From the IMG/VR virus record IMGVR_UViG_3300017971_000186: a stretch of DNA of 64,000 bases. The stretch is one strand, 5' to 3'. Shown one piece after another: positions 8,032-54,012 of this stretch. Numbering within the stretch: the stretch's first letter is position 1; the number at the start of each line of letters is the position of its first letter. The DNA comes from a virus (Duplodnaviria > Heunggongvirae > Uroviricota > Caudoviricetes). The notes below the pieces were generated by a model. The model searched no databases. It was given only the letters and a program-made list of their open reading frames with translations, and had not been told where the DNA came from. Position numbers and translations under genes: made by a program.

Positions 8032-8268
8032 TTACATTCTCTTTAATTTTTTTAGTTGTTTTTCAGTCTTTTTTGTATACCCTAAAACAGAATGACCTAT
8101 TATTGCTACCAATTTATCTAGTTCTCGTATCAATGGATTATTCGGATTTGCTCGTTTCCAAATTAATTTTTCTCCCGTTGAATCTTTTAAAAGAAACTCT
8201 TGTTTATTTGAAGAGCTGACTCGTTTGAAGCTATTTGTTGCTCTATTTGTTTGAGTTTTGCGTAACAC
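8032..8268 (-). CDS. Small basic hypothetical protein overlapping the 3' end of the upstream gene
   Basis: GTG start preceded by AGGAG with 6-nt spacing; fills the gap, its TAA lies 1 nt before the next ATG; 82-nt overlap with 8187..13529. Confidence 0.55.
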   Translation of the reverse strand: MLRKTQTNRATNSFKRVSSSNKQEFLLKDSTGEKLIWKRANPNNPLIRELDKLVAIIGHSVLGYTKKTEKQLKKLKRM

Positions 8269-11200
8269 CCTTGTCTCCTATTAAATCTGTTATTTGCCCA
8301 ATTATAAAGATCACTGGGTTCTCCATTATCGAGTAAAAGTTGTTCATTTTTTATAGCATTTTTTATCTGTGTATTTCTAGTATTTGTTAAATAATCTATT
8401 CTGTTTACAAGAAAATTACTTCGATCACTGGCAAAATTAGTTCTGTCTGCAAGCATCATATCAGAAATTGTCTGATATGCTACTGTAGCATCTCTCAATC
8501 CTGGATAAACCGTGGCATCAGGAGTGATTGATTGAGGAGGCAATATTAAAAATGCTTTACAAATACTTGCATCATGTATTGCAGGTCCAGTAGCACTTAA
8601 TCCTGAAATAGTATTTAAAGCAATTTTCATACTAGAGACCGTTGCATAAGTTGCATACGGAAATGTTACTGTTGTCGTACTTGGTCCTACATCCCACAAA
8701 ATATTCAAAGCTGTACTATCAGTAATATATCTCTGATTAGTCCCAGCCATTGAAACGTTATTAAGAAAGATCATATTAGGTTGATCTAAAGTAAATGTAA
8801 TTTCATTGTTATTACTATAACCGTAAATGCCCCATCCTGTCCATGTCCCATCAAAAGGGATATTACTTGTAGCATCTACTATTGCAGGATAATACGTAAC
8901 AGAAAAAATTGTATTATTCAATATTCTTCGATCATATCCAGCAGGTGCCTGAAGAATAAAAGATTGCTGACCATCAATATTTGTAATGCCAGGTCCGGAT
9001 GAAACCGGAACACCAACATTGGTACTGTCTTTACCACGAATAAATACACTATGTTGTGTAAAATCTGAAACCCATTCCCAATCGGTTCCTTTCCCTTGCC
9101 AATCGGTAATAATTCCTGTAGCATCGATTAATGCAGCACTGGTATCAGCCAACATTAAAGTTGCATTTAAATGAGCTGTGGAAGTATCAGCAGAAGGAAT
9201 ATCTTCCTCTGCAATAATAAGACCTGTAGCAGTGATTTGTTCTTCTATTTTCGGAATCTCTTGATAAATTAGATCTACCTGAGATGAGGCAGAATTATAA
9301 ATCTCACTTGCAAAAATAAGACCTGCTGGACTTATTCGATTTAACTTATCAGGACTTCCTAAAGCAATTAATGAACTCTGATAACCTAATTCTTCACCGA
9401 TGGCATGCGCTTCACTCGAATCTAAAATTGCTTCAGGAGGGACTAAATTAAGTGAAATAGCAGATGAGCTATAATTTAATCTATCATAATTCCCATAAAC
9501 AGTATCATCTCTTACAAATCCTAATTTAGTTGTCGTAGTGGTATCACCAAGTTTCATATAATTAACAGTTGAATCTGTCCTAAAAACTAAAGTGGAACGA
9601 TAACCATAAGTTGTAGTAGGATCAAGAACCGACTCGTATGTACAACTTAAACCATTAATTGTTGATAATAATCCTGCTACCAATGGTCCATTTAAATTGG
9701 CTACTGGAAAAAAAGTATCTAAAAAAGTATATGTCTTCTTATGAGTTAAATCCGTCCCATCAAGAAATATTTCAAATGTGTCTCCATTTATTAAACCAAA
9801 ATTACTCGCTCTTGTCCCTATTATTCTTGCCCCTACAAAACCGTCATCATCATAAACTGGGTAATCAGTATTTACTGCAGTATAGCGTTCGCCATCATTA
9901 ACATTAGAGGAATTTTCTCCATAAGAGGTAGTCAATTCAAGTTCAGCATTATTAGTGATACTATTTATTTGATATCTTTTCGTTGAATCTGCGCTACCAA
10001 TATAACCCGAATTATTTAATTGTAATGTCCAAAGAGTATTACCTGTACTAGTCACAGTTGTTGAACCATTAACAAATTTTGCACCATTGTCAAAAAAGTA
10101 ACCTGTTAATGGGTTCACTTCCATCGGTTCAAAATTAGTATTATCAACATCTGGAAAAATTCTACTGACAGTTTTATTCGCAGCATCCTGTTCTTGCTGT
10201 GTAAATATACCATCATTATTAAATAATTTCAGACCTACAGATGCCTCCATTTCATCGCCATAAGCCTCTAATCGATTACTGAAAAAATCATAGATATTCT
10301 GGAATACACGACATTCTATTTCCATGTCCTGTCGAGCATATTCATCACCAGTGATTCCTCCAGAAGCATTATCGTTACCTTCATCACCAATAACTTCACC
10401 ACCTTGACCTACACTACCACTAAGTTGAATCGCTTCTTCCCTCATTCGAGGAATAGTCACTGAACTAAAGAAATCTCTCTGATCTAAAACCTGGATATAA
10501 AATTGATCTAAATTAACAAATTGAAAGGAAGCCTTTACTTCTGATTTTGCAGGTAATGAATCAAAATAACCTGCAGTATAACTGACTTGTTTATTACCAA
10601 GAAATTCCAAACCCATGTAATCAAGATTATATTTATCTCCTCTTACAAGAGGGTTATCTAAAATAACTGTACCTCTATTACTTATTGAATAATCCGTAGT
10701 ATCAACAAAAGCAGTAGCATCAATACTTTTATATCTTAAAGCATTTGAGACATTTAATACAGTACTTGAGTCCCTGAAAACAGACAATTCAGTCACTAGT
10801 TCAATTTTACTACTCTGCCACGCTGGGATATATGTAGTAACAGCCAACGACGGAATAACCGTCATAGCACCTGAAAGATCACTTAAAGTCGGATAAGTAT
10901 TATATGAGAAAGAGGTTCCATCAACAGTCAAATCAGATTCAGTAGTTGTAATTTCTATTATCTGATCACTATTATAATTCATTATGAAACCTGGTTGATC
11001 AGATAAAGTCGCTATCGTTTCTGAAGCATAAATCTCTGTATCACCTTCAAGATAATATGGGTTATCACTATATTTTAAACTTGATAAATCTGTAGAGTCT
11101 GTTCGATCATATAATATTCCTGATCTCAGATTAACCGTGGTTGTGGTAGTATCACTATCATACGAAGCACTTGCTACTTGATATAAATCATTACTTACAT

Positions 11201-13529
11201 CAAGAATTGTTTTACTTCGAAAAATATTTTGAATATTATCACCAAAAAAAGAAATATTGGTAGAACCACTTATAATAGGACCAGCCGTTAAAGGAACACT
11301 TAAATAAGTAGGAGCACTATCACCTATAAACATTTTTGGGTTTATTATATCTTCAAAAATAGGTGTTTCAATATTTATTCTTGTACCGTAATTATCATAA
11401 GAAGAACTTAAAATGGTATGATAATATTGCACAGCAGAATCAGGTCTAGCAAGAGTGAGAATCGAACTTGCATCTATAAATGAAGTCAGGTCAGACCCTT
11501 CTATATAAACAGTTTTTACCCCTTCAGTTATATTTAAATTATTTACAACAACCGGATAATATTCCGTTGATTCACTTTCAAAAGTATAATCAATTAGTAC
11601 AACATCAGTTGATTTTAATCCTATAGAAGTATTAGTAGCATTTTTCTCCAATAAAAGAGTCGGTCCCTCTGTCTGGATATTTGTTAAATCATAATCCCCA
11701 TCTCTTGTCTCATTATAAATGCGATTAATTTGGATCTCACCAGCATCCAGGCTAAGATTTATTAAACTAAATCTATAATTATCAGCATCTACTATTGTTA
11801 ACCTAGAATCATTTACTGTACAATACCAAGCGTTATCTGTATAAAATAAATTATTAACCTGTTTTGAAAGAGGAGTATAGCTTATAGAAAAATTATCCTG
11901 GGAAGTAAGAGTGTCTATAAGAGAAATTCTACCAGTTAAATAACTAACAAAATAATCCTCATCTTCTGTAAGAATTGTATCATTTTTTATTAACAAAATA
12001 GAATCTTGCTTTATCGGATAAGAACTCGTAGCAATGACAGTTCCACCATCAGTTCCTACAATAAGCTCATCAGAAACAGGATTTGATTCAACCATATAAT
12101 TTATTTGATAAATTTCACCAGGTCCCGGATGGTCCTTATCACGAGGTTTTAACCTTCCTATAGCAACCTGAAAAAGAATATCATCATCAATTTCAGCAGG
12201 AAAAGAAATTTTTTGTTCTATCCCATTTAAATAAACTTTAAAACCATAATCGATATAATCACTATAATCAGAACCTACATATTTTACTATCTCTTCATTT
12301 ACAGTTGAATCTATAATATTGATAGTCCCAGAATTCCCTTCCAATACATAATCTCTATAAGGAACCTGAGTAGTACCATCAACAGTCAATGAAAAAGATC
12401 CCGGATATATTCCTCCTATCGAATTACCAGAAGAATCAGTAATATTGAACTCTCCTAATGCTGTTAATTCTGTACTTGGGCTGTTTGATAATTCTGTTAA
12501 AAACATTATATTAGCCACAAAACGCTCATTTGGAGGAGGAGGTAAAACATATAAAGGATTCTGAGAATAGGATAATACATAATCTTGATACATCGTTTGT
12601 TCGACACTATTAATCCAAAGTTTCATAGAAGATTCAGGAAAAGGAACTACAGGAAGAGCAAACTGAAACGTTTCATATTTAGTCTCTCTGGCAAAAATGG
12701 TATTCTCTGTAACAGCCACATCCATTAAATCTGGATCATTAGTATTTAAGGCACGAGAAAATTTTAATGTAACTCCATCTACTAGAGGAGTAAAATTCGT
12801 AGAAGTAGTAAGATCATCAGCCTCTATAGCCCCATATTTCCACTTCGCTGCCTGATCATCATAAGTTATATCATTTTTAGCATACTGAATTCTGGTTCTA
12901 CCTATAACCCATTTCTTAGCAGTATAGGAACCACTCGTAGTATCACCTGAATAAGAATTCTCTAATGTTAATGATGTCCCAGAAGGTACCGCAGCTATTC
13001 TAAAATATTCTTGATATCCATCATGTTTTATAAAATCACCTGGGGCTATTATCCCTGACCAAGAAGGACCTGTATTTATTACAGTCTTATCTCCAGAAGT
13101 AAAGCTAGCTGTACCGGTCGAAGTATTTGTTATTGTATCTGGCTCTACAACATATTCTCTTTGACCCATATCAAATTGTATAGGATAAACCCCTGTCAGA
13201 CCCGAAGCACTTTCAAGTTGAAAACTGGTAGAAGAATCGATATTTGCTATTCTAAAAATAGTGGAGTCAGCAGTAAGATTATCTCCCACTTTTAATGAAG
13301 AAGTAGTTAAAGCACCATAGGGTGCTCCAAATGAAAATCCACTAACAGTATCATCACTAGCAAAAGTCCCACTTCCTGTGACATCACTCTTTCCTGGAAC
13401 ATATTGCCCGTTTACATAAACAACACCTGTTGTACGAGCATTATTGACTCCCGATCTTGATCCACGTATTTCAAAAAATTCAAGATCTATCGTATTATAC
13501 GATAACAGTGTATTTAAATCAGTACTCAT
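8187..13529 (-). CDS. Large baseplate-associated structural protein (multiple beta/Ig-like modules, helical C-terminus)
   Basis: 1780 aa Ser/Thr/Asp-rich; repeated ..DY.(L/V)....G.I modules; lies between spike and wedge genes. Confidence 0.75.
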   Translation of the reverse strand: MSTDLNTLLSYNTIDLEFFEIRGSRSGVNNARTTGVVYVNGQYVPGKSDVTGSGTFASDDTVSGFSFGAPYGALTTSSLKVGDNLTADSTIFRIANIDSSTSFQLESASGLTGVYPIQFDMGQREYVVEPDTITNTSTGTASFTSGDKTVINTGPSWSGIIAPGDFIKHDGYQEYFRIAAVPSGTSLTLENSYSGDTTSGSYTAKKWVIGRTRIQYAKNDITYDDQAAKWKYGAIEADDLTTSTNFTPLVDGVTLKFSRALNTNDPDLMDVAVTENTIFARETKYETFQFALPVVPFPESSMKLWINSVEQTMYQDYVLSYSQNPLYVLPPPPNERFVANIMFLTELSNSPSTELTALGEFNITDSSGNSIGGIYPGSFSLTVDGTTQVPYRDYVLEGNSGTINIIDSTVNEEIVKYVGSDYSDYIDYGFKVYLNGIEQKISFPAEIDDDILFQVAIGRLKPRDKDHPGPGEIYQINYMVESNPVSDELIVGTDGGTVIATSSYPIKQDSILLIKNDTILTEDEDYFVSYLTGRISLIDTLTSQDNFSISYTPLSKQVNNLFYTDNAWYCTVNDSRLTIVDADNYRFSLINLSLDAGEIQINRIYNETRDGDYDLTNIQTEGPTLLLEKNATNTSIGLKSTDVVLIDYTFESESTEYYPVVVNNLNITEGVKTVYIEGSDLTSFIDASSILTLARPDSAVQYYHTILSSSYDNYGTRINIETPIFEDIINPKMFIGDSAPTYLSVPLTAGPIISGSTNISFFGDNIQNIFRSKTILDVSNDLYQVASASYDSDTTTTTVNLRSGILYDRTDSTDLSSLKYSDNPYYLEGDTEIYASETIATLSDQPGFIMNYNSDQIIEITTTESDLTVDGTSFSYNTYPTLSDLSGAMTVIPSLAVTTYIPAWQSSKIELVTELSVFRDSSTVLNVSNALRYKSIDATAFVDTTDYSISNRGTVILDNPLVRGDKYNLDYMGLEFLGNKQVSYTAGYFDSLPAKSEVKASFQFVNLDQFYIQVLDQRDFFSSVTIPRMREEAIQLSGSVGQGGEVIGDEGNDNASGGITGDEYARQDMEIECRVFQNIYDFFSNRLEAYGDEMEASVGLKLFNNDGIFTQQEQDAANKTVSRIFPDVDNTNFEPMEVNPLTGYFFDNGAKFVNGSTTVTSTGNTLWTLQLNNSGYIGSADSTKRYQINSITNNAELELTTSYGENSSNVNDGERYTAVNTDYPVYDDDGFVGARIIGTRASNFGLINGDTFEIFLDGTDLTHKKTYTFLDTFFPVANLNGPLVAGLLSTINGLSCTYESVLDPTTTYGYRSTLVFRTDSTVNYMKLGDTTTTTKLGFVRDDTVYGNYDRLNYSSSAISLNLVPPEAILDSSEAHAIGEELGYQSSLIALGSPDKLNRISPAGLIFASEIYNSASSQVDLIYQEIPKIEEQITATGLIIAEEDIPSADTSTAHLNATLMLADTSAALIDATGIITDWQGKGTDWEWVSDFTQHSVFIRGKDSTNVGVPVSSGPGITNIDGQQSFILQAPAGYDRRILNNTIFSVTYYPAIVDATSNIPFDGTWTGWGIYGYSNNNEITFTLDQPNMIFLNNVSMAGTNQRYITDSTALNILWDVGPSTTTVTFPYATYATVSSMKIALNTISGLSATGPAIHDASICKAFLILPPQSITPDATVYPGLRDATVAYQTISDMMLADRTNFASDRSNFLVNRIDYLTNTRNTQIKNAIKNEQLLLDNGEPSDLYNWANNRFNRRQGCYAKLKQIEQQIASNESALQINKSFF

Positions 13530-14138: not shown

Positions 14139-14148
14139 TTATTGATCC

Positions 14149-16080
14149 TTAAGCCGTTGCACTTACTTTTAAACTTCCTTTTAGAGGAGCACCTGTCACA
14201 TAATCCGCATGAGAAGGTATTCCAGGAAGACCTGTTACAACTCCTCCTATAGGTGCATTTTGTCCTAATTTTACTACTGGAGCATCAACACTTACAGAAA
14301 CTGAACCCTTTATCTCTACTGAAGTTCCCGAAACTGTTACAGTACCTAGTGCAGTTTTTATTTCTATCGATCCTGTCTTTACATCAAGAGTATAACTTCC
14401 TAATTTTATAAGAGTCTCATAAACTCCATTTCCAATGTTTTGTTGAATATTCCCACCGTTTACAGACAATTTCTTTTGACCGAATGTAGTTATTGTGTGT
14501 TGGATATCACCTGCATTAACTTCCAATTCATCATTACCTTGAGGAGTTATGACAGTCTTTCTACTCCCATATTTTTGTTGCTTCTCTTTCGAAACTGTTT
14601 CTGAATAAACTCCCAACACATTAACACTTTTGTCACTCTGTATAGATTGAGTATGAGAACCACCTATATTCTCAGTCTTCAACCCATTTATAACAAGAGT
14701 TAAATTCGAACTAACTTCAGTTTTGTTGCCCCCAACATTCTCATATGTATTCCCTTTGATCTTCTCTTTTCTGGCATAACCGTCATCATCATTCCCATTT
14801 ATTTCGACATTTATACCTTGAGAAGTCTTTATATCAATACTTCGACCTCTTAAATTAGTGTTATGAGCACCAATATTCCAACGAACTCCACCCGCTGTAG
14901 CCAAATCCCAAGAGTTATTTATTAAAGCTTCTCCTCCCCATATCTCTTTTAAATTACCTTGAGCCAGGGTAGACATCGATCTTCCGGCACCTAAAGGATT
15001 TGTTTTCGATGCTGGGAGATTCATATAATAATGGCCTTCTTTATCGATTCCAATAAAACACCCTGATTTCAAAGAATGTAAAGCATAAGCGAGACCTATA
15101 ATAGAAGGTTCATCCATGGCATTATCTCGTATCGCCTTTTCTAAACCGAAGTTTCCCTTTATATCATTTGGAGAAGAAAAAAGGACTGCTTTTAATATTT
15201 CTCCATACTGTTGAGGATTAGTTCGATCAGCTCCTATGTAATTACCCATTGCTAAAGTTATAAGAGGATCTCTTGTTGATAATGGAGAAGAACTATTAAT
15301 GTCATTAAGATCTAATTTTCCATCAACCAATTCATCTACATCAACCCGATATTCAGAATAGTATTGAGTATCATAAGTGATATCTTCACCATTAGGAACT
15401 ATATAAATGTTTTCTTTTCCATCCGGAAGAGATACGAGACTACCGTTATTTCTTATCTTTTTTCCATTTTTATCATAGAGTACAAGGCTATTTCTCATTG
15501 CGGGACCAGCACTTACCGCTACACCATCAGCAAAAATGAAATTATTTAGAGAAGTAGCAATAATTGATTGATCTTCATCACGGATTAAAAAAGTATCTTG
15601 AGAACCATCACGTAATTCTAAATTAGCATTTAAAGTAATTTCAGCTCCCGATGGGGAAGCTATGACCAAATCATTTAATCCCAATTTTCTGAATTTAAAT
15701 AAAATCTCATTTACATCACTCGTAGGAATAGCATCAGGATGTATCTTAACAACATTATAATTTAATCCTGCATCAAGACCTGCTGGAAGATAACTTAATA
15801 ATAGAGGACTTCCACCACCCACTCCAGAATTATACCATCCAAAAATTCCGAATGATCCTTTTTCTGGCAACATCCCAATAAATCCTGCCGGACCTGCGTA
15901 AGGAAAACTTATTGGGACATGGTCTCTACTACCATTACCTGGTTCCCATCTAACAGTCATTGTATATTTATCAAGATCGATTTCTTCAATAACACCCGTT
16001 CTAACATAAAAATATTGATTATTTCTATCTATGAAAGAACTATGAGGTTTTTCGCCAGGAGCATAATATCTATTCCTCAT
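14149..16080 (-). CDS. Baseplate central spike (gp5/gpV-like; OB-fold plus C-terminal beta-helix)
   Basis: 643 aa; TGVIEEID...TVRW...VPISFP...GMLPEKGS OB-fold; repetitive short beta strands at C-terminus; follows hub gene. Confidence 0.75.
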   Translation of the reverse strand: MRNRYYAPGEKPHSSFIDRNNQYFYVRTGVIEEIDLDKYTMTVRWEPGNGSRDHVPISFPYAGPAGFIGMLPEKGSFGIFGWYNSGVGGGSPLLLSYLPAGLDAGLNYNVVKIHPDAIPTSDVNEILFKFRKLGLNDLVIASPSGAEITLNANLELRDGSQDTFLIRDEDQSIIATSLNNFIFADGVAVSAGPAMRNSLVLYDKNGKKIRNNGSLVSLPDGKENIYIVPNGEDITYDTQYYSEYRVDVDELVDGKLDLNDINSSSPLSTRDPLITLAMGNYIGADRTNPQQYGEILKAVLFSSPNDIKGNFGLEKAIRDNAMDEPSIIGLAYALHSLKSGCFIGIDKEGHYYMNLPASKTNPLGAGRSMSTLAQGNLKEIWGGEALINNSWDLATAGGVRWNIGAHNTNLRGRSIDIKTSQGINVEINGNDDDGYARKEKIKGNTYENVGGNKTEVSSNLTLVINGLKTENIGGSHTQSIQSDKSVNVLGVYSETVSKEKQQKYGSRKTVITPQGNDELEVNAGDIQHTITTFGQKKLSVNGGNIQQNIGNGVYETLIKLGSYTLDVKTGSIEIKTALGTVTVSGTSVEIKGSVSVSVDAPVVKLGQNAPIGGVVTGLPGIPSHADYVTGAPLKGSLKVSATA

Positions 16081-40800: not shown

Positions 40801-43800
40801 CACCCAGTGGAGGTTTATCAACTGTTAACTTCACTTTAAATACACTATTTGCCAATTCTGGCAGATAATCCATATAAATAGTTTGAGGAGTTGATGTGGC
40901 ATCCCAAAATTGATATGTAAAAGTACTATCATTTTTAAGAATACGGAAAGTTACATTCGTATTATCAAAAGGCACTCCTGAAACAGAGACAGCCCCATTT
41001 ATAGAGGATATTCCAAAAAAGCCATTAAATTTCCGTGCCACTCCTGCCCAATTTAAATCATCGACCCACAATAGAAATGCTGCCGTATTCTGAGATGAGT
41101 CTGGAGTGAGTGAAGTATAATCTGCTTCAACATTTATTTCTTTTCCTGAAATATTAAATTCCGATAAAGTCTCCGGGAAATTATAATTATCATTTGGTGA
41201 ATCAAAAGTGAGTTCATTATCTATGGTTACAGAATTCGTAGTATCCCACCATTTTATATTTAAAATATCACCTGTAAAAGGCTCTTCTAAAATGGGCTCA
41301 ATTTCTTTTATAAATATCTTTCCATCTCCGGCACCATCATAACCATCAACAGTTGCAGTTCCATCATAAGTTATAGTTTTATGATGCCACATTGAAATAT
41401 AGCCACCACTTCCACCACCGGAATTACTTACCAATTGAGTCCTTCCACCATCTGCGCTTATTGTTCCAGTCCCATCTATTCTCCAACCAATAAGCCAGAC
41501 ACTTCCTCCAGCGGCACCCCCGGTCATAGTCCCATCCTGACCATCCATTCTGATTCTACCATTAATACTAACATTACCTGAATTTGCCACTAATTTAATA
41601 GCTCCACCACCTTTAGTTTCCTGCCCTAAATAATCAGCAGGCTTGTGGTAATAACCTGATCCACTTCCTAAGGAAACAGGTGTTTCATAATTACCGTAAA
41701 TAGGTAGGGGAGGAGGAAAAAGTCCAGAGGGTAAAAGAGATTCATAAGCTCCCATATCAACAGTAGCAGAAGATCTTGGATTACCATCATATCCAACCGA
41801 TGGAACTACAGAATAAGTCCCACTACCTATACCAGTTCTTATACAAGGACTATTACTTTGTAAACGGAGATTTGTAGAACTAATAAAAATTGGATCAACT
41901 TGAATACTATTTGGTCCTGGAGTGACTGCTCCAGAAACATAAGGTGTGCCAAAATTATAAACATTGTTATAATCAATGACACCGGCTGTAAATGAAGTTT
42001 CGATTCCAGTGGCAGCTCCCACAGTATCATCTCTATAAACGATATTATTGAGAACATAACTATTTGCACCACCACTAAGATATCTTATACCATAACCACC
42101 AACTGGGATATTTCTGATCGTATTATTTACAACACTCTGACCAGCTCCAGTGGTATAAATTCCTAAAGGTGCCAAACTTGAAACACTTCGAACGACATTA
42201 TTCCTAATAGCTACACTACTATTTATAGAAGTTCCAGCACATAAAATTGATCCTCCTACATCATTAGTTTCAATAGTAGCATCAGAAAGAGTATCGGGTT
42301 GTATATAAACAAATAAATATTTCCCTTCAAAAATATGATCTGATATATTTACACCCTGTATAGTTTTAGTAGTAGTATCAGTAATCCAAAGGGCACCGTC
42401 TACACCGGAAGAGTCACTATCCTGATAAGTAAAACTCTGATTGATATTACAATCATCAAGATAAACTCCTTGTACAGCACTTACAGCACCAGTTGGATCA
42501 GTCACTGAAAAATCACATCCAGTAACTTCTAAAGTATCGAAATCCCATGTTCGGGCGTTTATAAAGGGCTGACTTGGACTTGGACCTGATTTATATAATT
42601 GTAAATTTTGTATTGTTACAGCATCTGATGAATAAACAGTAGGATAGTTGTCCCAACGAAACTGGCTCTCTCTTGAAGCTCCAGTATTCTTTACATGAAT
42701 AACAGGTTTGGCTGTATTATTAGCATATGATCTAATTGTTACCGCAGCATTAATAAAATTAGGAAAAGCAGTCGAATCATCAATTGTACCACCAGCATTA
42801 CTTACTTCAACTGTATCCCAATTTGATAAAGTTATAACACCAAGTAATTGATTGAAATTAACAGCACCTTTTATTTCAGTATCAAAAGGATATGTAGCAG
42901 ATCCACCATTATTTACAAAATAAGTATTAGGAGTAGTTTCATAAGCACCAATATCACAGACAAGACTCTGTCGGGCAGTACCATCATAACCTGTTGTAGG
43001 TACTGAAGAATAGACTCCGTAACTTGCACCGGTTTTTATACAAGGACTTCCAGCTTGGAGATGGAGATTAGAAGTGCTATCATAAAGAGGATCCAATTGT
43101 GTATTACTTGTACCATATGTAATGCCACCACTTACAAAATATGGGTTTGTATAACCATAAATATTATTGTTATTGAAAGAAGCTCCTGCTGCAGCAGTAA
43201 CTTGAATAGCATAAATGAACCAAGATTCCGAGCCTCGACTTAGAGTATTATTAGCTACAACTAGATTAGCATCAGCATTATTTACAAATATACCCCCAGC
43301 TTGAAATAATGAATTATTAACAACACTTGAATTCGTCAAAGTAGGAGCAGCTAAATTTATGGTATTAAAATGAAATGAATCCATTGAGTTAATAACATTA
43401 TTTCTTATTTTAATGTCATCACAGGTTTGACCTGCAGTACCTGCCATAAAGACAAAAGTTAGTCCACTATCAGTACCATAATTATTATCAACAACAATTC
43501 TTTGTATAGTACTTAGAGTTCCGACAAGAAGAAAAGCTTTAATACTACCATAACTAATATCATTATACGTATTATAAGAAGCACTAAAATCTTCAAAGAC
43601 AGAACAATTGTCTCTGATATATAGTCCAGCACTCATCTTAGTTATTGTATTATATTCAAACCTGGAAGTTCCATGAAGATCAGAAGTGTCTAATTCCACA
43701 GCAGCTACCGAGCCAGCAGTTCCGGTTATTGAGAAGTTACAATTAGTTACTTCAAAATTTGATATATCACAAGTTAAAAACCAAATGAAAGCGATAGAGG

Positions 43801-45588: not shown

Positions 45589-45589
45589 A

Positions 45590-47638
45590 TTAAAGCCCTA
45601 CTTGTACATTTAATCCATTCATATTAAAGGTCCCATCAAGAACCCAAAAATCCCCTTTTACTCTCAAAGGGCTACCACCATCACATACAACTTGTTCAGT
45701 GACATTTTTATTTACATAAAGTGTTGGAACTATACAACCTATTTCATTTTTAATTTGCTGTTGTTCTGTCCCATCTAAATATATCGTTAAATTATTAAAA
45801 TTATTCCACTGATTATAACCAGATCTACAAGATGCATCTCCTTTTAAATTAATAGAGGCACCCACACCAAGATGACGGGCACTTCCACTATTTAAAACCA
45901 ATAGATCGTTCACATCCATGCTCTGACTGACACGGGCTTGGTCCGCATTAAATTGTAAAGTAGATGCTCTCATACTAGGAGCTTCGATCATACAACCACT
46001 ATTATCAAGAGATATAATACCACTATTATGTTCGAAAAATGCAGTAGGATAATAAGTAAATGTAGAGTCGCAAGAAAGAGTTTGGTCAGTACTGGTAAAA
46101 TTAGCAGCTCCTCCTATATAAAGATTTCCTGCTATCCTAATATCATCTCCACTACCTTCAAAAACTCCAGACCAAAACAGAGCCCCACATGAATCCACTG
46201 AAATGGGAAAACCATTTTGACTGATAGTGTTTCCATAACCTGAACAATAAAATCCATTTACATCAACCGAAGTATCTATATCACATCTACCTATTCCACC
46301 ATTATCAAATACAACAGTATTATTGGAAATAGGAACTGGTGCTCCTCCTGGACCTCCAGAAAAATACGACCAATTAGCGGTATCATTCCATGTGGAATCC
46401 GATAGAGCAACCCAATATCGAGGATCTGTAATTATATATGGAGGTTCCTCCCCGATATTCCATTCACCAAATGTAGCTAACCAAGTAGAATCAGCAGGAG
46501 GATTAAAACCATCTTGTGCAATTCTATCTGAGAAAACATAAAAGGGTGTAGTACCACAAGTAAAAAAAGTATCAGGATCATTTTGAGAATTATAAGTGGC
46601 TTGCATCCATCCATCATCAAATAACAATGGATTCTGTCTATATATCCTCAATTCATCAATACGACCATCAAAAGGCCATCTTTGGCTAGGACCTCCTCCA
46701 CCCCACTCTTCAAATGTTGCACCAATTTGTGTTTGATGATTAGTAACAGTATCAAAAGTCAAAGCTATTAAAACATTTGATGCATCAGTTCTTTTTTCTC
46801 CATTAACATAAAAATCTACTTGTCTTGAAAACGAAGTATTATCTTGAGAGACAACCGCTACATGAGTCCATGTTGATAAAGGGACTATTGCATCTGAAGT
46901 ATAAGAATTAGTTCGAGATCCTGCAGTACATCCTGTAGAATAATTTAATTGAAAAAATGGATGTCCAGTTGAATCTATTGCAAAGATAAATTGAGATCTA
47001 CCCCTATACCAATTAACGCAATATGTACCTCTTGAGGCAATTGTGGCATATTCAAAATTAGGATTTGGGACATGGACTGGATAAGAATTTAAATAAACCC
47101 AAGCTTCCGCAACAATATCATCATTAAACATGATATTATTATCTAAGACTACATATTGAGTAGAATCTTTATCAAATTCTAAAGCTCTACCAAGTTTCCC
47201 TGTAGTATAAGTAGGGCTATTTACTAAAGTTCCATTATTTGCATTAGTTGAATCATCTAAAACATCATCTTCAAAATGCTGAATATTTTGTGCTTCTAAA
47301 TCTGTCCAGATAGAATTATCACTTGCTGTAGTACCAGAACCTACTTCACAAAAGATATTATTATTAGTGCTACTATCAGACCCATATAAAGTAGGAACTT
47401 GTACCCATGCCCGAATAGAAGTTGAAGGAGTATATTCTTCAATCGTTCTTTTATATTCAACAGTTTTTAATGGATCTGAATAAAACCGGACATCTAAAGC
47501 ACAAGAATCAGAAATATTAGGCCAAAATCCGGCAGGAATTGCAGATATACTCTCATTAAAAAGTACTGGGAAATTAGTTTTATTTGCACCTGGAACTTGT
47601 GTGTAAGGTACACAAAGTCTGAACATAAATGCTGCCAT
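45590..47638 (-). CDS. DUF2341-LamG lectin-like protein with C-terminal beta-solenoid
   Basis: 682 aa; FDGRIDELRI; YWV...W...NWS..SGG.GGA.VP....VVFD solenoid start. Confidence 0.8.
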   Translation of the reverse strand: MAAFMFRLCVPYTQVPGANKTNFPVLFNESISAIPAGFWPNISDSCALDVRFYSDPLKTVEYKRTIEEYTPSTSIRAWVQVPTLYGSDSSTNNNIFCEVGSGTTASDNSIWTDLEAQNIQHFEDDVLDDSTNANNGTLVNSPTYTTGKLGRALEFDKDSTQYVVLDNNIMFNDDIVAEAWVYLNSYPVHVPNPNFEYATIASRGTYCVNWYRGRSQFIFAIDSTGHPFFQLNYSTGCTAGSRTNSYTSDAIVPLSTWTHVAVVSQDNTSFSRQVDFYVNGEKRTDASNVLIALTFDTVTNHQTQIGATFEEWGGGGPSQRWPFDGRIDELRIYRQNPLLFDDGWMQATYNSQNDPDTFFTCGTTPFYVFSDRIAQDGFNPPADSTWLATFGEWNIGEEPPYIITDPRYWVALSDSTWNDTANWSYFSGGPGGAPVPISNNTVVFDNGGIGRCDIDTSVDVNGFYCSGYGNTISQNGFPISVDSCGALFWSGVFEGSGDDIRIAGNLYIGGAANFTSTDQTLSCDSTFTYYPTAFFEHNSGIISLDNSGCMIEAPSMRASTLQFNADQARVSQSMDVNDLLVLNSGSARHLGVGASINLKGDASCRSGYNQWNNFNNLTIYLDGTEQQQIKNEIGCIVPTLYVNKNVTEQVVCDGGSPLRVKGDFWVLDGTFNMNGLNVQVGL

Positions 47639-47673
47639 AAGCTAATCCAATAAGCCTTTGTTAAAAACAGTTA

Positions 47674-47699: not shown

Positions 47700-47702
47700 A
47701 TT

Positions 47703-50700
47703 TTAGAATGTTCTTGTTCTACCTGCGGTATCCACATGAACCCGAGTTAATTCTGTCGTATTATCACGTCTGAAGAATCTTATATCTCCTCCCGTTGGAT
47801 CATTAACAAGATATTTACCATTTACTCGTGCCATCATTAACATAAAGGCATATTCTAATGTGGTGCCATCAACTACAGTATCCAGAGTTAAGGCATTTAG
47901 AGTACCTCCTCCTCCACCACCAAGGACTTCAGTAGCATCAAGATCATGGCCTGTACCAACTCCTCTTAAGCGCATTCCAGCGCCGTCACCTGTCTGAGCA
48001 TAAGCATTAATACCATCACCTGTTGTATCTCCACCGATTGCCTCAATACCATGACCAGTAGATCCACCAATAGCAGCGATACCAGCACTGGAATCATGAC
48101 CAATGGCACAAATACCATTATAATCACCGTGGACGGCTTCAGCCAGAATACCGTGGCCACTTGGAGGAGGAGCAGCACCAGCACCACCGACAGCATGGAT
48201 TCCGTGGCCATGATCTCCACCCTCAGCATAAAAACCGTCACCTGTTGATCCACTACATGTTATATTCATACCACCCAAATCACCTGTAGCAATTAACCCT
48301 TGTCCTCCAAAACCTGTTATATTGACACCATGGCCACCAGTATTGCTAGCTCCTCTGATTTCCACACCACTACCAGAACCAGCAAATTGAGCAGCAACAT
48401 ATAGGCCACTTGCAGTCCCATTTCCTTGAATTCTAACACCATTATAATTACCGGCTTGAGCTTCAATTTGTAAACCATGCCCACCGCCCATAATATGGAG
48501 ACCGGCATCGAAAGAGCCACCAGCTAAAATCCGAGCACCTTCACTATTTCCACCACCTTGGACCAACAAACCTCTTCCATCAGAACTACCACCACGAATT
48601 TCCATACCTGCTTGTGATCCCGATCCTTGACTGTAGAAACCAGGATTACTTCCACCAGCTTCAATATGTACTCCATCATTGTCAGTACTTATGATATTTA
48701 AACCATTACCACCTATAGCATTAACATCAATACCTGGACCTGATAATCCTTGGAATCTTACTCCAGTGGTTCCGACAACGGTCATACCATAGGATGAAGT
48801 AGATTGTATATACATACCACTCTTCCCAGACCCATGAGCATCTATTTGAATACCATGTCCAGTAGTTGTTGTCATATCAAGCGCATTTCCAGTCAATCCT
48901 ACTAGTTGCATTGCTATACCACCCGTACTGACTATTCCTTTACCCGTAATAAGAGAACCAGTTGCTGAAATTCCGTTACCTGCTACCGGGGACTGAGCAT
49001 TTATACCATCACCTGCTGAATTACCACCTATTGCATAGATACCCATTCCGTTATTTAGAGCACGTGTATAGATACCACTTCCAGATGTTGATCCTCCTAT
49101 TATTTCAACTCCATGTCCTGATGTACCACCTTCAATATAGACACCTGAACTATTATCAGAACCCGTTATACTCAAGCCATTAGAATTGGTTCCATCTACT
49201 GCAAGAAGTAAACCTGCACCAGAATTATCCCCACCTCTAAACTCAACTCCATGACCCCATAAACCACCTTTACTATACATGCCACTTCCAGAGCCAAAAC
49301 CACCCGCGTAAATACCATAATGGTCTCCATGACGGGCTTCAGCATGAATACCGTCACCGCTTGGAGGAGCACCACCTTCACCACCAAGGGCATTTATACC
49401 ATGCCCATGTTCTACAGATTCAGCTTTTATACCGTCACCACTCGTAGAATTTTCTCCTCTTGCGTAAATACCCGCTGTCTCACCTGAAGCTCTGAGACCG
49501 ATTGACCCAGATGAAGCTCCTCCAACAAAGTTCACGCCATGCCCAGAACCAAATCCTTTAGCATAGATTCCATTAGAACCTGATCCGCTAGTTTCAATAT
49601 GTAAGGCATTATCTCCTGAAGAAATTATATGGAAACCGGTTCCCTGTAAGCCACCATTAGCATATATTCCGCTTCCGCTACTATTATTACCACCATAGGC
49701 ATATATTCCGCTACCATTGTTATTACCTGAAGCATCCAAACCATGACCATCAGAACCAGTTGAGTGAGCGACAATGGCTGATCCTGAATTATTAACGATA
49801 TTTAATTGTTTCAAATTAAGAGTTGCATTGTTACCACTTGTAGCCTGACCATCAATAGAGACTACATTTACATCTGTGGACATTCCTCCAACCTGACTAG
49901 AAATAGCAACTAAACTATCGATACTAGCAGTGAAATCAGAACCACCACTTGCATCAGACATTGCCGTAAGCATCGCATATATGCTTGGACTTGCAGTACC
50001 ATCAAAGATAGCTGGAGGCGTTCCGATTTCAGCCGTATCCAGCCCAACTGTGCCCGTACCTACCAATTTCAAACCAGCCTGACCTGTTCCACCTGTTAGA
50101 AGAACCGCTGCATTAGCACCACCACCAGAAGCATCTATGCCATGTCCAGTTCCAAATGATGCTGTACTAATTCCATGTGTTGCACCTAATATCTTTAATC
50201 CTTCATTTGCAAGACCCGTTAAACTGATACCTTGAGTACCAGCTATAACATTAATTCCAATACCGGTACCGGCAGAAATTGCCACTGCTTCTTGATCAGC
50301 AGTAATTCTAAGACCTTTGCCAGTACTCTTTCCATACATTGCTACACCATCTCCAGCAGTAGGGGATTGACAAACAAGACCTGTTCCAGAGGTAGAACCC
50401 GCTTTAGCAATAATGCCATTAGCTGTTGCTCCTCCTTCAGCATAGAGACCTTCACCTGTACCATCTCCGAGAACTTTTAAACCAGGATTTCCTGTACCAC
50501 CTTGTAGATGAACAGCAGCAAAAGTTCCACCTCCTGAAGCATCTATAGCATAACCAGACGTTGCAGTAAGATTCATAGCTGAACCTGATGTACCACCACC
50601 AACTATATTAACACCGTTTCCGGTACCATTACCATAAATCTCAATAGCATTTTGATTTGTACCAGCATTTACTTCAATACCTACACCCACTGCAGATACT

Positions 50701-51620
50701 ACATTGATTCCATTAAAATTAGAACCAGATCCAGAGATCTGTAATCCATGGCCATTAGAAGCTCCAAATAGGCTCATACCATGACCTGGATTTCCATTAC
50801 CTTGAGCAAAAATCCCTATATCTCCAACAGCATAAATACCTTCTCCAGTACCAGTACCTGAAGTCAGAAAACCATGGCCATTTGTACCTCCAAGACAAGA
50901 TATACCAGCACCACCGGTACCACCCTCACAACTAAACCCATGACCAGTACTACCACCTTCAGCATAAATCCCAGCGTTTCCACCTTCTCCGATACCTACT
51001 ATACCCTTACGAGATCCTGTACCGATACCAACAGCCTCACCATGAATACCATCTCCATAATCAGCACCTCCTTCTCCATAAAAGCCATGCCCGGTTTCAC
51101 CACCTTTAGCAAAAATTCCAACACCATCCGTATTACCACCTTTGGCATATATACCGTGACCTAAATCATATCCAGAGGCATCGATACCATGGCCACTACT
51201 ACCCGTTGAATGTGCTCTAAATGCAGATCCTGAATCATTCTGGATATCGATTTGTTTAAATTTCCAGGTCTCATTATAATCAGTTAAATCAGCACCAAGA
51301 TCAAAGGGGTGCATTGCTTGAGGATGTCCGTAAGTCTCAATCATTAAATAATCATCGAGCCAAGTTTTTGTACCTTGATCAACAATTCCAACAAATATTC
51401 TCTTAGCAGACAGTTCAGCAGAGGTAAATGCTATTGCATATGATGTAGTTTGATCTGTAAATCCATTTGTTGTATTTACTTCAGCACTCGTGTCTTTTCT
51501 TATTTTTGTGTCACCGGAGGCATGCGTTGCATCAGTTTTAAAGTTAATTCCATCTGTTTCGAATAGGGTAAAATCAACTGATGCTGCCACACCAAATTTT
51601 CTTAGGACTCTTTCAGGCAT
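47703..51620 (-). CDS. Gly-rich beta-solenoid fibre-like virion protein
   Basis: 1305 aa of about 13-aa G.G(hydrophobic).A.GG repeats; internal duplication KQ..I.N.SGSA..AHSTGS.GHG.DASG; non-repetitive termini. Confidence 0.75.
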   Translation of the reverse strand: MPERVLRKFGVAASVDFTLFETDGINFKTDATHASGDTKIRKDTSAEVNTTNGFTDQTTSYAIAFTSAELSAKRIFVGIVDQGTKTWLDDYLMIETYGHPQAMHPFDLGADLTDYNETWKFKQIDIQNDSGSAFRAHSTGSSGHGIDASGYDLGHGIYAKGGNTDGVGIFAKGGETGHGFYGEGGADYGDGIHGEAVGIGTGSRKGIVGIGEGGNAGIYAEGGSTGHGFSCEGGTGGAGISCLGGTNGHGFLTSGTGTGEGIYAVGDIGIFAQGNGNPGHGMSLFGASNGHGLQISGSGSNFNGINVVSAVGVGIEVNAGTNQNAIEIYGNGTGNGVNIVGGGTSGSAMNLTATSGYAIDASGGGTFAAVHLQGGTGNPGLKVLGDGTGEGLYAEGGATANGIIAKAGSTSGTGLVCQSPTAGDGVAMYGKSTGKGLRITADQEAVAISAGTGIGINVIAGTQGISLTGLANEGLKILGATHGISTASFGTGHGIDASGGGANAAVLLTGGTGQAGLKLVGTGTVGLDTAEIGTPPAIFDGTASPSIYAMLTAMSDASGGSDFTASIDSLVAISSQVGGMSTDVNVVSIDGQATSGNNATLNLKQLNIVNNSGSAIVAHSTGSDGHGLDASGNNNGSGIYAYGGNNSSGSGIYANGGLQGTGFHIISSGDNALHIETSGSGSNGIYAKGFGSGHGVNFVGGASSGSIGLRASGETAGIYARGENSTSGDGIKAESVEHGHGINALGGEGGAPPSGDGIHAEARHGDHYGIYAGGFGSGSGMYSKGGLWGHGVEFRGGDNSGAGLLLAVDGTNSNGLSITGSDNSSGVYIEGGTSGHGVEIIGGSTSGSGIYTRALNNGMGIYAIGGNSAGDGINAQSPVAGNGISATGSLITGKGIVSTGGIAMQLVGLTGNALDMTTTTGHGIQIDAHGSGKSGMYIQSTSSYGMTVVGTTGVRFQGLSGPGIDVNAIGGNGLNIISTDNDGVHIEAGGSNPGFYSQGSGSQAGMEIRGGSSDGRGLLVQGGGNSEGARILAGGSFDAGLHIMGGGHGLQIEAQAGNYNGVRIQGNGTASGLYVAAQFAGSGSGVEIRGASNTGGHGVNITGFGGQGLIATGDLGGMNITCSGSTGDGFYAEGGDHGHGIHAVGGAGAAPPPSGHGILAEAVHGDYNGICAIGHDSSAGIAAIGGSTGHGIEAIGGDTTGDGINAYAQTGDGAGMRLRGVGTGHDLDATEVLGGGGGGTLNALTLDTVVDGTTLEYAFMLMMARVNGKYLVNDPTGGDIRFFRRDNTTELTRVHVDTAGRTRTF

Positions 51621-51676
51621 AGTATCAGCTCCTTAATTATATAAAAGCCATTTGATTCTTTTTTCATGGCCATAAC

Positions 51677-51724
51677 AAAAAAAGATTAAGGGACCTTATC
51701 AACAATTGATAAATCACAGCCCTT
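51677..51724 (-). terminator. Terminator-like hairpin between the 741-aa and 1305-aa genes
   Basis: AAGGG..TTTATCAA-TTG-TTGATAAG..CCCTT then AATCTTTTTTT. Confidence 0.45.
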
Positions 51725-51786
51725 TCTTATTATTAAGGCTATTAAAGAAGGATGAATATTAATAGATTAATAAAGGAAGAATTTTT

Positions 51787-54012
51787 TTAAAAACCACTAC
51801 TGTTCACTTTTTGTCTTCTTCGCATTACAGGTACAGAAGTAGAAGGAGGAGTTGGAACATCCCCGCAAATAATAAACGTATTCGGATCATTTTGATTATT
51901 ATAATCAGTCTCTATCCAATCAGTATCAGGAGGCTCCCAACCATCATGAATCCGCAATTCATCAATAATACCATCTATTCGCCACTCATTAACACCTGAA
52001 GTTTTATACTGGGACCCAATTCTTGTTTGAATACCACCAGCGTATACCGGGGCAAATTCTGCAGTATAAACTTTTGTAGCAGCTACCGATTGACCATCTA
52101 CATAAAATGTCAGAGATCTTGTTGCACCATCTGTATAATTATTTATAACAGCCATGACATGATGCCAATTATAAAGACTGATATGTGTACTATCCGTTCG
52201 ATAGCCCCATGTAGTTGCTCCACCACCACAACTAACACTTGTCCTAACCCAAAAATCAAGTTCACCAGTTGGTGTAATATTAAAACTCATGGGAATCCAA
52301 CCTCTATAAGTGGTTGAACAGATAACTGCCGTATTGTAAATACTTGCACGGCCATAGTTCGGAGAACCTGTTAAAGAATTATTTGGCGGATAAGAATTAA
52401 GATTTATCCATGCACTTATTGCTACAGTATCATTATAAGCAGTACTCTCATAAATTTGGACATGGCTATCATTAAATGAATAAGCGTCATTTATTTTTCC
52501 TGTTGAGTCTAAAGAACCATTATTTGTACCATCCAGTCCTCTTGGAGAATAATCCATTAAACTCTTTTGAAGATGGTATATACCTCTAGCGCTAGAATCG
52601 GCCCAAATTTGATCATTAGCTTTTGTAGCATCCCCTATTTCACATACAAAAGTTGTATTTGAAGAAGCATTTAATGTAGGTACTTTTATATAAGCTTCTA
52701 CTTTTTGACCAGTCCGATCATAAAGAACAATTTCACGATCATATTCAACACTCTTTCCAGAATCACTATAAAATCTAATATCTAATCCATTTGTCGTATC
52801 CGAAACATGATCCCATAACTCGGAGGGTACATTGCTACAATCTTGAGTAAACATTACTGGAAAATTCGTTTTATCTGAACCAGGGACATAATCTGATATG
52901 ACATTCACATTAAATTGAAATGGAAGGGTACTACCAGAAAGAAATGAAGCTGGATCACTTTGAGTATTATAACTTGTCTCAATCCAACTAGAATCAAAAT
53001 CTGAACCATTAAATATTCTTAATTCATCTATTCGACCATTAAAATTTTGATAGTGTGCTCCCCCTATTCTATATCCACTACCAATTCGAGTTTGTTCACC
53101 TGGTCTATGAGTATTCGAATAGTCAACAGCGGCACTAATATTCTCTGTAGAAGAGACCAATTGACCATCTATATAAAATTTCACAATACGGTTAGGTGTT
53201 GTTTGTGAAATATCTTCAATCCAGACACCAACATGATACCATGTATTCATATTAATAGTGCTATCTGTGGTATACCTATCTTGATGATAACCTGCATTAG
53301 AACATACATTAGTTAAATTATCTCCAACAAAAAAGCCTACTTTAGCATCTCTATCAACACCAAAATCAAATGAGCATGATCCTCTTCCTGATACAGATTC
53401 ATTACACTTCTCTAATCTATTAAATATGGTAGCGAATTGATCCTCCCAACTTGGATCAGTTACTTTAGTGTTATCCATATTAATCCAGGCAGAAACATAG
53501 TAAGGATTAGAAGTTAAAAAGGTATAATTATCCATTACCATATAATTACTTGTACCGTCAAAATCGTAACATCTTCCTATTCTTCCAGTTATGGAAGTGG
53601 CATCACTATTTGTTGCATCTTTTCCATTATCAACAGAACTAGCAGTGTTTTCCATATGATAAATTCCAAGTGCCCCTAAATCAGTCCATATATCAGTATC
53701 ATTTGTTCGATCACCACCTCCAACTTCACAATAAAGATCAGTATCTGCACTAACACTTAAAGAAGGTATTTGTACCCATGATTCAATAGTTTCACCAGTA
53801 GCATCAACTGATACAACTTCTCTTGAATATTCAATTGATTTTGATGTACTATCATAAAAACGAACATCTAATCCATCTGTTACATCAGTGATATTAGACC
53901 AAAAAGAAGATGGTATATTCGAACAATTTTCATTAAATAAAACAGGAAAATCTGTTTTATCAGTTCCTATTATTTTGCTACTATCAACAGTCAATCGAAA
54001 CATGTAAGACAT
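51787..54012 (-). CDS. Protein of two tandem DUF2341-LamG modules
   Basis: 741 aa; two copies of DK(T)(D/N)FPV...DIRFY...VEY.RE...IDELRI...DP. Confidence 0.85.
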   Translation of the reverse strand: MSYMFRLTVDSSKIIGTDKTDFPVLFNENCSNIPSSFWSNITDVTDGLDVRFYDSTSKSIEYSREVVSVDATGETIESWVQIPSLSVSADTDLYCEVGGGDRTNDTDIWTDLGALGIYHMENTASSVDNGKDATNSDATSITGRIGRCYDFDGTSNYMVMDNYTFLTSNPYYVSAWINMDNTKVTDPSWEDQFATIFNRLEKCNESVSGRGSCSFDFGVDRDAKVGFFVGDNLTNVCSNAGYHQDRYTTDSTINMNTWYHVGVWIEDISQTTPNRIVKFYIDGQLVSSTENISAAVDYSNTHRPGEQTRIGSGYRIGGAHYQNFNGRIDELRIFNGSDFDSSWIETSYNTQSDPASFLSGSTLPFQFNVNVISDYVPGSDKTNFPVMFTQDCSNVPSELWDHVSDTTNGLDIRFYSDSGKSVEYDREIVLYDRTGQKVEAYIKVPTLNASSNTTFVCEIGDATKANDQIWADSSARGIYHLQKSLMDYSPRGLDGTNNGSLDSTGKINDAYSFNDSHVQIYESTAYNDTVAISAWINLNSYPPNNSLTGSPNYGRASIYNTAVICSTTYRGWIPMSFNITPTGELDFWVRTSVSCGGGATTWGYRTDSTHISLYNWHHVMAVINNYTDGATRSLTFYVDGQSVAATKVYTAEFAPVYAGGIQTRIGSQYKTSGVNEWRIDGIIDELRIHDGWEPPDTDWIETDYNNQNDPNTFIICGDVPTPPSTSVPVMRRRQKVNSSGF

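Follow-up and report, generated by a model that had tools for sequence, protein, structure and literature searches.

The fibre-like virion proteins of a huge tailed phage carry, at high density, a three-residue motif of the form D-[S>G~A]-[T>S], in which the Asp is replaceable by neither Asn nor Glu. The motif was found in a stretch of 64,000 nucleotides, hereafter the window, representing the minus strand of positions 346021-410020 in a complete 469,617-bp IMG/VR virus record (IMGVR_UViG_3300017971_000186; Caudoviricetes) with direct terminal repeats, 34% G+C, 35 tRNA genes and a transfer-messenger RNA (tmRNA) at 111873-112282. All large open reading frames (ORFs) of the window lie on its minus strand and together make up a myovirus tail module. 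The motif is restricted to one class of virion proteins, is maintained across a clade of related phages while its single sites turn over, and occupies turn and loop positions in a predicted structure. Tentatively, and with somewhat less than even confidence, we read it as a tag that is maintained by selection and read in trans for a hydroxyl-directed modification, most plausibly as the acceptor of a cytoplasmic O-glycosylation; this reading leans on viral precedents and on transferases that the phage itself encodes. Four proteins of the window are carriers (coordinates are those of the window unless the genome is named; lengths in amino acids, aa):

8187..13529, minus strand: 1780-aa fibre-like virion protein, 7 DST and 16 D-[SAG]-T (3.3 expected)
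37895..45220, minus strand: 2441-aa fibre-like protein, 9 DST and 21 D-[SAG]-T (4.3 expected)
45590..47638, minus strand: 682-aa LamG_3 (PF13385) protein, 6 DST and 8 D-[SAG]-T (1.0 expected)
51787..54012, minus strand: 741-aa protein of two DUF2341+LamG_3 modules, 4 DST and 10 D-[SAG]-T (1.5 expected)

The original prediction had counted the same DST in these proteins against about 4 expected, and the counts proved exact: the 26 DST in 5,644 aa compare with 4.26 predicted by composition and 7.27 by a first-order Markov model. In the 1780-aa protein, which weakly matches the tail-fibre phrog_1980, they lie at residues 88, 407, 811, 1181, 1319, 1501 and 1604. Among the 8,000 tripeptides DST ranks first in the four proteins (Poisson P 1e-12; Markov P 6e-8), directly followed by DAT (14 vs 2.5 expected) and DGT (15 vs 3.3), with DSS also high (14 vs 4.5), and pooling all 31 proteins of the window leaves it in first place (31 vs 9.7). 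Furthermore, the order of the residues matters, as each of the five alternative orders of DST is found 3-9 times, those of DAT 0-3 times and those of DGT 0-6 times. DST, on which the original prediction was built, is therefore enriched as claimed, yet the real motif is wider, D-[SAG]-T, found 55 times in the four proteins where about 10-12 are expected.

Counts of this kind may arise artificially from composition, repeats, paralogy or a word at the DNA level, all the more as D, S and T abound in the carriers, four modules are paralogous, and the sole strong outliers in control phages are tandem-repeat proteins. However, shuffling inside blocks of 10, 20 and 40 residues left DST at z 9.5-10.8 in the four proteins, with z 13.4-19.3 for D[SAG]T and for a ten-protein set and a span of z 9.5 to 17 at the 10-residue block size, ruling out local compositional heterogeneity; the enrichment thus survives composition, Markov and local-block controls alike, shuffling being a check that had been proposed with the original prediction. 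Codon usage at the sites mirrors that of the genes in general, with AGY and TCN serine codons both in use, which points to selection on the protein and rules out a DNA word. Analogously, BLAST among the carriers detected no repeats beyond a single shared module of ~360 aa, the N-terminal DUF2341+LamG unit, of which the 741-aa protein holds two copies and the 2441-aa and 682-aa proteins one each. From copy to copy the sites change: over the four, the motif falls in 13 alignment columns, three of which are common to two copies and none to all four, and paralogy and tandem repeats were rejected on this basis. The D and T of the motif are just moderately more conserved than other D and T residues. 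As the enrichment is moreover reproduced in two independent families of 39 and 51 sequences (see below), we regard an artefact as already refuted, leaving it next to no probability.

The grammar of the motif became apparent from pooling the carriers of this phage. Observed and expected numbers were 52 and 7.7 for D-S-T, 27 and 7.3 for D-G-T, 24 and 4.7 for D-A-T, 19 and 8.0 for D-T-T, and 22 and 7.6 for D-S-S, so that DAT, DTT and DSS, which had been remarked as common, are indeed so. In contrast, N-[SAG]-T (9 vs 17 expected), E-[SAG]-T (4 vs 9.4) and N-x-[ST] (123 vs 131.5) are not enriched. Congruent with this, a homology-selected set of 39 orthologues of the 1780-aa protein shows enrichment after D-[SAG] for T (4.1x) and S (2.8x), with all other residues at 1.3 or less, and before [SAG]-T for D alone (4.1x), with all others at 1.2 or less. 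The middle residue in that family is S in 66, G in 43 and A in 32 of 141 columns. Positions -3 to -1 favour hydrophobic and aromatic residues, and +1 favours V or A. Avoidance of deamidation at N-G, N-S or N-A was considered as the reason for D over N and rejected, considering that N-[SAG] is common, with 141 cases lacking a following T, and that the NG, NS and NA ratios are merely 0.80-0.92.

These numbers bear on the version initially put forward, in which DST is a sequon of the Bacteroidota type, D-(S/T)-(A/I/L/V/M/T), written by a glycosyltransferase (GT) encoded in the middle of the tail module:

34217..34894, minus strand: 225-aa soluble GT-A glycosyltransferase, candidate tag writer (phrog_1574; W-I-D88-S-D90 DxD motif)

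The likeness is that of an Asp-containing three-residue motif with a hydroxyl residue, to which DST and DTT formally fit, both of them enriched, and the enzyme is genuine, with a DxD, a place in the tail module and conservation within the clade. In the Bacteroidota, however, the acceptor directly follows the Asp and the third residue is aliphatic or Thr, whereas here the Asp stands at -2 of a conserved Thr and Gly or Ala are allowed in the middle. Roughly half of the sites, the equally enriched DAT and DGT, thus lack S or T after the Asp, and an aliphatic third residue is not enriched in the carriers (33 D-[ST]-[AILVM] vs 43.6 expected; 14 DS[AILVM] vs 21.6). Moreover, O-glycosylation in Bacteroidota is periplasmic, with exported substrates. 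None of 11 carriers has a hydrophobic N-terminal segment or any N-terminus resembling a signal peptide, as had been stated, their maximal 10-aa hydropathy being at most 1.9 compared to 3.6-4.1 in two secreted-looking phage proteins (a check by hydropathy alone), and we take the proteins to be cytoplasmic. Half of the sites lacking S or T after the Asp, the missing aliphatic preference and the lack of export together exclude the Bacteroidota sequon, and as phages of other lineages have the GT and lack the motif, this version as a whole appears very improbable.

An unbiased motif scan was run over all 599 ORFs of the 470-kb genome. Seven proteins reached P<1e-4, all of them fibre-like or virion proteins, and the top of the scan consists of the same four window proteins plus about seven fibre-like virion proteins outside the window. 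The enrichment had been assigned to outer virion proteins within the window; a peripheral fibre-like set is what we recover, but its members extend beyond those coordinates into the rest of the genome:

Genome 227040-234053, plus strand: 2337-aa tail fibre with collagen repeats and a Ycf48/BNR propeller, DST 13 vs 1.7
Genome 246251-255487, plus strand: 3078-aa collagen-repeat protein, DST 6 vs 0.7
Outside the window: a 1017-aa tail-fibre-like protein and a 1104-aa protein
Genome 332-335 kb: small motif-dense virion proteins of 213, 125 (phrog_3758, virion structural) and 191 aa, the 191-aa protein (334438-335013) with 7 sites

The 3078-aa and 2337-aa proteins together hold 47 Pfam Collagen matches, and in the latter D-small-T avoids the collagen segment, where only 1 of its 31 D-[SAG]-[TS] sites falls. 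Over the rest of the genome (131,727 aa) DST is at expectation, 25 vs 28.5, and D-[SAG]-T at about 96 vs 83. Within the tail module itself, the following proteins provide the contrast:

19986..23294, minus strand: 1102-aa tape measure protein, motif-free (0 DST, 0 D-[SAG]-T)
14149..16080, minus strand: 643-aa gp5-like hub/spike, motif-free
16081..18369: 762-aa tail protein, 0 DST
590..3763, minus strand: 1057-aa Baseplate_J-like protein, motif-free (0 DST; 0 D-[SAG]-T vs 1.9 expected)
27063..29864, minus strand: 933-aa tail sheath, motif-poor (0 DST; 4 D-[SAG]-T vs 2.2 expected)
47703-51620, 54849-58325 and 58356-62042, minus strand: three large proteins of 1305, 1158 and 1228 aa lying among the carriers, function unassigned, with 0, 1 and 1 DST

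The absence of DST from the tape measure, hub, spike and baseplate J proteins, as originally reported, was thereby borne out, and holds also for the sheath and the 762-aa protein. The three unassigned proteins lie in a span, 47703..62042, that also holds the 741-aa carrier (51787-54012), and as they lack DST enrichment, not every large protein of the module is tagged.

To place the motif in an evolutionary frame, relatives were located through the sheath (61-86% identity). Their orthologous fibre proteins are still enriched (18 vs 3.1, 12 vs 2.7 and 18 vs 3.9), the orthologue of the 2441-aa protein in one of them, G001, standing at 12 vs 2.7. For the 1780-aa protein, all 39 of 39 orthologues, spanning 35-100% identity, are enriched, with 508 D-[SAG]-T against 123.5 expected and 222 DST against 53.3, while the controls remain at expectation (T-[SAG]-D 126 vs 123.5; N-[SAG]-T 98 vs 100.9; D-[SAG]-Y 58 vs 71.4). 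An excess of DGY was likewise seen in none of the genomes examined, where [ST]GS stood just mildly above expectation. In an alignment of 36 orthologues the 474 sites are spread over 141 columns, 66 of them singletons and none occupied in 30 or more sequences, and the three best columns (at least 18 of the 36 sequences) hold 14% of the sites. The composition-matched control T-[SAG]-D yields 122 sites in 55 columns of the same alignment, with 30 singletons. Where the alignment is good, the motif fills 44 columns vs 11-26 for controls, and columns with at least ten carriers number 6 vs 0. A second, unrelated family, consisting of 51 representatives related to the 191-aa protein, behaves similarly: D-[SAG]-T occurs 162 times vs 17.0 expected (9.5x), N-[SAG]-T 9 times vs 10.7, and two columns are occupied in 27-29 of 41 sequences, the remainder being variable.

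Outside the clade the picture differs. Proteins homologous to the 741-aa carrier but belonging to other lineages (29-41% identity, same Pfam domains) have 0-1 sites in most cases, and often show G, S, N or E followed by small-T at aligned positions where this phage has D-small-T. The same LamG/DUF2341 fold thus occurs elsewhere mostly without the motif, which is therefore no inherent property of that fold. No enrichment is seen in T4 (DST 12 vs 12.1; D-[SAG]-T 0.93x), and five cyanophages have D-[SAG]-T at 1.15-1.44x with no DST excess. Strong outliers in seven control phage genomes were tandem-repeat proteins only, with DGT at one fixed repeat position: a 3487-aa G-T-S collagen-like repeat protein of LR756501.1 (399879-410342, minus strand) with 27 DGT, and a 407-aa protein of S-TIM5 (NC_019516.2 159352-160575, plus strand) with seven repeats of ~52 aa and one DGT per repeat, both of them ordinary enrichments driven by repeats and used as contrast. 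As a sanity check of the method, the top tripeptide of T4 was HSH; T4 fibres carry His-x-His metal-binding motifs. Searches of the window DNA and the 741-aa protein against named phages (blastn, tblastn) gave no match, and scanning viral contigs with the 1780-aa or the 2441-aa protein singly was equally negative.

We then turned to the structural position of the sites, exploiting an AlphaFold2 (AF2) model of the 741-aa protein with a mean predicted local confidence (pLDDT) of 66.5, reaching 80-94 over most of the first 360 residues. In this confident part the motif is predicted always at a strand/loop boundary, so that the sites, whose mapping onto a predicted structure had been suggested earlier, appear at the edges of strands and not in cores. 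D54 directly follows strand 50-53, D70 closes strand 64-70 with a 4-residue hairpin coming next, D137-A138 form a 2-residue turn with T139 starting the next strand, and D152 closes strand 147-152; all four stand at strand ends or in hairpin loops of 2-4 residues at pLDDT 80-94. The flanks of the sites are slightly less conserved than average in the 1780-aa family (0.525 vs 0.559).

Such positions would also be expected if D-small-T were a structural element acting in cis, a capped Asp(i)-Thr(i+2) turn of the Asx-turn type with a small residue at i+1, closing beta-hairpins or arcs and with nothing attached to it; the fibre proteins of the clade would then have adopted the capped turn as their preferred turn or as an aggregation-gatekeeper solution. 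The exact placement at strand ends and in tight hairpins is in agreement with this idea, and so are the strand-like flanks (hydrophobic or aromatic at -3 to -1, V or A at +1) and the turn-compatible nature of G, S and A. Several columns are conserved in 22-29 sequences, one of them keeping D and T while the middle residue varies among S, W, R, A and T; beta-rich cyanophage proteins display the mild general excess noted above, and the tandem repeats of S-TIM5 use a fixed DGT turn. On the other hand, the physics of a turn is universal, yet the same LamG/DUF2341 fold elsewhere mostly does without the motif and T4 fibres have none. Furthermore, interchangeability of Asn and Asp, typical of a generic Asx-turn, is not seen: Asn, the commoner residue in Asx-turns, stays at or below expectation both in the orthologues and in this phage despite the 141 N-small cases. 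Most sites are evolutionarily labile, and the motif is lacking from the sheath, hub and baseplate proteins of the same virion, which are just as rich in beta structure. On balance, we hold a purely structural role to be possible but rather unlikely, and the foremost competitor of a tag.

The properties of the motif hint instead at a reader in trans. A strict D and T>S around a small spacer is a grammar typical of an enzyme sequon; the motif is restricted to one virion-protein class across unrelated folds, the same fold in other lineages lacks it, and its density is maintained while sites turn over, features that point to a trans-acting reader. A DxD GT-A enzyme in the tail module, conserved in the clade, also counts in favour of a tag. 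In the scheme we envisage, D-[S/G/A]-[T>S] would be a short linear tag on the surface of peripheral fibre-like virion proteins, where selection keeps its density high, and would be read by a trans-acting factor during virion assembly in the cytoplasm. The reader would most plausibly be a phage-encoded enzyme modifying the hydroxyl residue, with the Asp at -2 as recognition determinant. O-glycosylation of the Thr is favoured, which may provide the fibres with a sugar coat for shielding, stability or adhesion, and the GT at 34217-34894, a GT2-family enzyme and a sulfotransferase would be the candidate writers.

The GT matches phrog_1574 (unknown function, 1.5e-63) and weakly phrog_34859 (glycosyltransferase, 1.5e-5), with no Pfam family match even at E<=1. 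Among 27 homologues (50-100% identity), W86, D88 and D90 never vary. Its AF2 model (pLDDT 91.7) places the DxD after strand 83-87, and Foldseek returned 264 PDB matches at E<=0.001, the best 50 of which are all GT-A enzymes, led by STIV A197 (PDB 2c0n) and including the GT domains of LH3 and COLGALT1, Mnn9, mimivirus R699 and polypeptide GalNAc-transferases (best matches at E 2e-10 to 3e-8, TM score 0.55-0.6, identity 11-19%). An Atlas model (predicted TM score 0.91) likewise has GT2/Anp1-like neighbours. Judged by these models, the earlier assignment as a soluble GT-A glycosyltransferase stands, the protein being a genuine DxD enzyme. STIV A197, a small viral GT-A, LH3/COLGALT1 and R699 share the DxD and the GT-A fold with it, and several of them act on proteins; however, at such TM scores and identities the acceptor specificity cannot be inferred, though many structural neighbours glycosylate proteins. 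Glycosylation of collagen hydroxylysine as the job of the GT is unsupported: the phage has two collagen-repeat proteins but no PF13640 oxygenase partner in its genome (PF13640 alone was searched). In P-SSM2 (NC_006883.2 70230-72597), the GT homologue lies between two 2OG-Fe(II) oxygenase genes, directly upstream of gp25/gp6/gp7, an arrangement that resembles the hydroxylase-plus-glycosyltransferase logic of collagen modification.

The distribution of the enzyme does not follow the motif. Within the clade the GT is found in G001, G004, a 424-kb contig and a 512,380-bp contig (the latter probably the carrier of a 1780-aa orthologue), and it was not found in five relative fragments, which are 7-26% complete. 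It lies between sheath and fibre genes in this phage and in G004, whereas in G001, a relative of 95 kb, it is ~70 kb from tail and fibre genes and not syntenic. The phrog_1574 family is common in T4-like cyanophages and occurs also in the 735-kb huge phage LR756501. GT-positive S-TIM5, P-SSM2 and LR756501 have no DST excess (21 vs 18.6, 30 vs 27.6 and 45 vs 60.3) and resemble in this respect the GT-negative T4, S-PM2, Syn9 and P-SSM4. Thus, presence of the GT does not suffice for the tag and shows no specific tie to it, and the co-occurrence of motif and GT anticipated by the original prediction, along with the link to this particular enzyme, fails across phages of other lineages; within the clade it remains a candidate for the writer. 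Alternative candidate writers flank the region of the 213-, 125- and 191-aa proteins:

Genome 327085-327759, minus strand: GT2-family glycosyltransferase (PF00535)
Genome 337032-337610, plus strand: sulfotransferase (PF03567), 2 kb from the motif-dense 125-aa and 191-aa proteins

A tag may also be read in trans by something other than a glycosyltransferase, through phosphorylation, sulfation or acylation, by a chaperone of fibre folding or assembly, or as a multivalent weak ligand site that binds cations or polymers of the host surface. Such a reader would likewise account for the sequon-like grammar, the lineage specificity and the turnover, the sulfotransferase lies close to two dense carriers, and no GT tracks the motif. 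However, neither a kinase nor a chaperone candidate was identified, the T > S preference and the viral precedents favour glycosylation, and three residues are small for contact with a chaperone or ligand. Hence, we deem such readers unlikely.

Returning to the preferred reading, a tag for cytoplasmic O-glycosylation, several observations weigh against it. The modification is a proposal from sequence and predicted models, and no enzyme distribution tracks the motif: the phrog_1574 GT is present in S-TIM5, P-SSM2 and LR756501, where DST is not in excess, and it keeps no fixed position with respect to the tail genes. Non-virion proteins show no avoidance of the motif, at the counts given for the rest of the genome, although a promiscuous enzyme in the cytoplasm that reads no more than a tripeptide might be expected to cause it. 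Certain sites are well conserved, in columns with 22-29 carriers, and a hydrophobic strand followed by D-small-T also fits a turn acting in cis. Finally, the sheath and the three other large module proteins show no clear sign of the tag, and a search for the major capsid protein with PF07068 yielded no identification, with the controls silent as well, so that a coating of all exposed surfaces is not established.

Known systems provide partial parallels. Capsid and tail-tube subunits of mycobacteriophages are glycosylated by phage-encoded enzymes (Freeman et al. 2023, PMC10527164, via PMC12619734), on the C-terminal parts of these subunits, and the account of that work relayed in PMC12619734 reports no tripeptide sequon. 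The likeness, as far as this account goes, is that of a tailed phage that would modify its own virion proteins in the cytoplasm with a GT encoded beside the structural genes; here, by difference, the motif is a dispersed D-small-T on fibre-like proteins. A phage GT adjoins structural genes here, in G004 and in P-SSM2, but not in G001. In the glycan shields of HIV Env and influenza HA, the density of N-x-S/T is kept while single sites come and go in variable surface loops. The motif described here has the same evolutionary signature, and D-x-T is shaped like N-x-T; however, Asp cannot be N-glycosylated, N-x-[ST] is at expectation in the carriers, and no oligosaccharyltransferase is involved. 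GT-A enzymes of STIV and chloroviruses are further precedents for glycosylation by viruses. Taken broadly, huge phages may possess an undescribed system of hydroxyl-directed protein modification in the cytoplasm, most likely O-glycosylation guided by the Asp at -2, for which D-small-Thr would be the acceptor sequon and by which fibres would be coated; the motif would then belong to a wider family of 'Asp/Ser-small-hydroxyl' virion tags with lineage-specific phage transferases. This extended proposal is speculative, and we consider it doubtful.

The remainder of the module holds several further features. Several very large proteins of the window match no family. The first ORF, at 2-577, encodes the C-terminus of a longer protein of 1358 aa (genome 409444-413520), which reaches ~3.5 kb beyond window position 1 and shows no motif enrichment (D-[SAG]-T 3 vs 2.2). 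The 1305-aa protein (47703-51620, minus strand) is 24% glycine, with a local G+C of 42% vs ~35%, and carries a different repeated motif, possibly metal-binding, with 19 GHG, 9 HGI and 4 HGV; over the 27 non-carrier window proteins GHG occurs 19 times vs 3.6 expected, all 19 copies in this protein. LHV occurs four times in each of its 1158-aa and 1228-aa neighbours. Directly upstream of the GT, inside the tail/fibre module, lies a 500-aa ThyX at 34905-36407 on the minus strand (PF02511, two matched stretches), an odd place for a gene of nucleotide metabolism and about twice the usual ThyX length. ThyX and the GT as a pair for DNA hypermodification was rejected, as the neighbour is an ordinary Thy1/ThyX and no ThyA-type hydroxymethylase. 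An actin-fold protein is encoded among the tail genes at 31788-32804 on the minus strand (full-length Pfam Volactin match, 1.2e-63), with zinc-ribbon neighbours at 29977-30396 (Zn_ribbon_8, 1.4e-11) and 33752-34126. The Volactin and A197 matches raised the idea of an archaeal virus, which was dropped considering the tmRNA and T4-like features of the genome. A tRNA with a CTA anticodon at genome 149116-149189 (an ARAGORN call of Pyl) would read TAG; the window genes are clean under table 11, with no sign of recoding seen there.

If the tag is a site of modification, huge phages would possess their own sequon-directed decoration of tail fibres, equivalent in bacterial viruses to the glycan shields found on animal viruses, which would bear on host recognition, resistance to proteases and defence systems, adhesion and phage engineering. 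The grammar, with Asp at -2, a small spacer and Thr > Ser, is precise enough for direct testing on peptides, and metagenomes can be searched for it. Should the motif prove purely structural, a turn specific to this clade and marking its peripheral virion proteins would still be a useful annotation signal in phages where structural genes are mostly without family.

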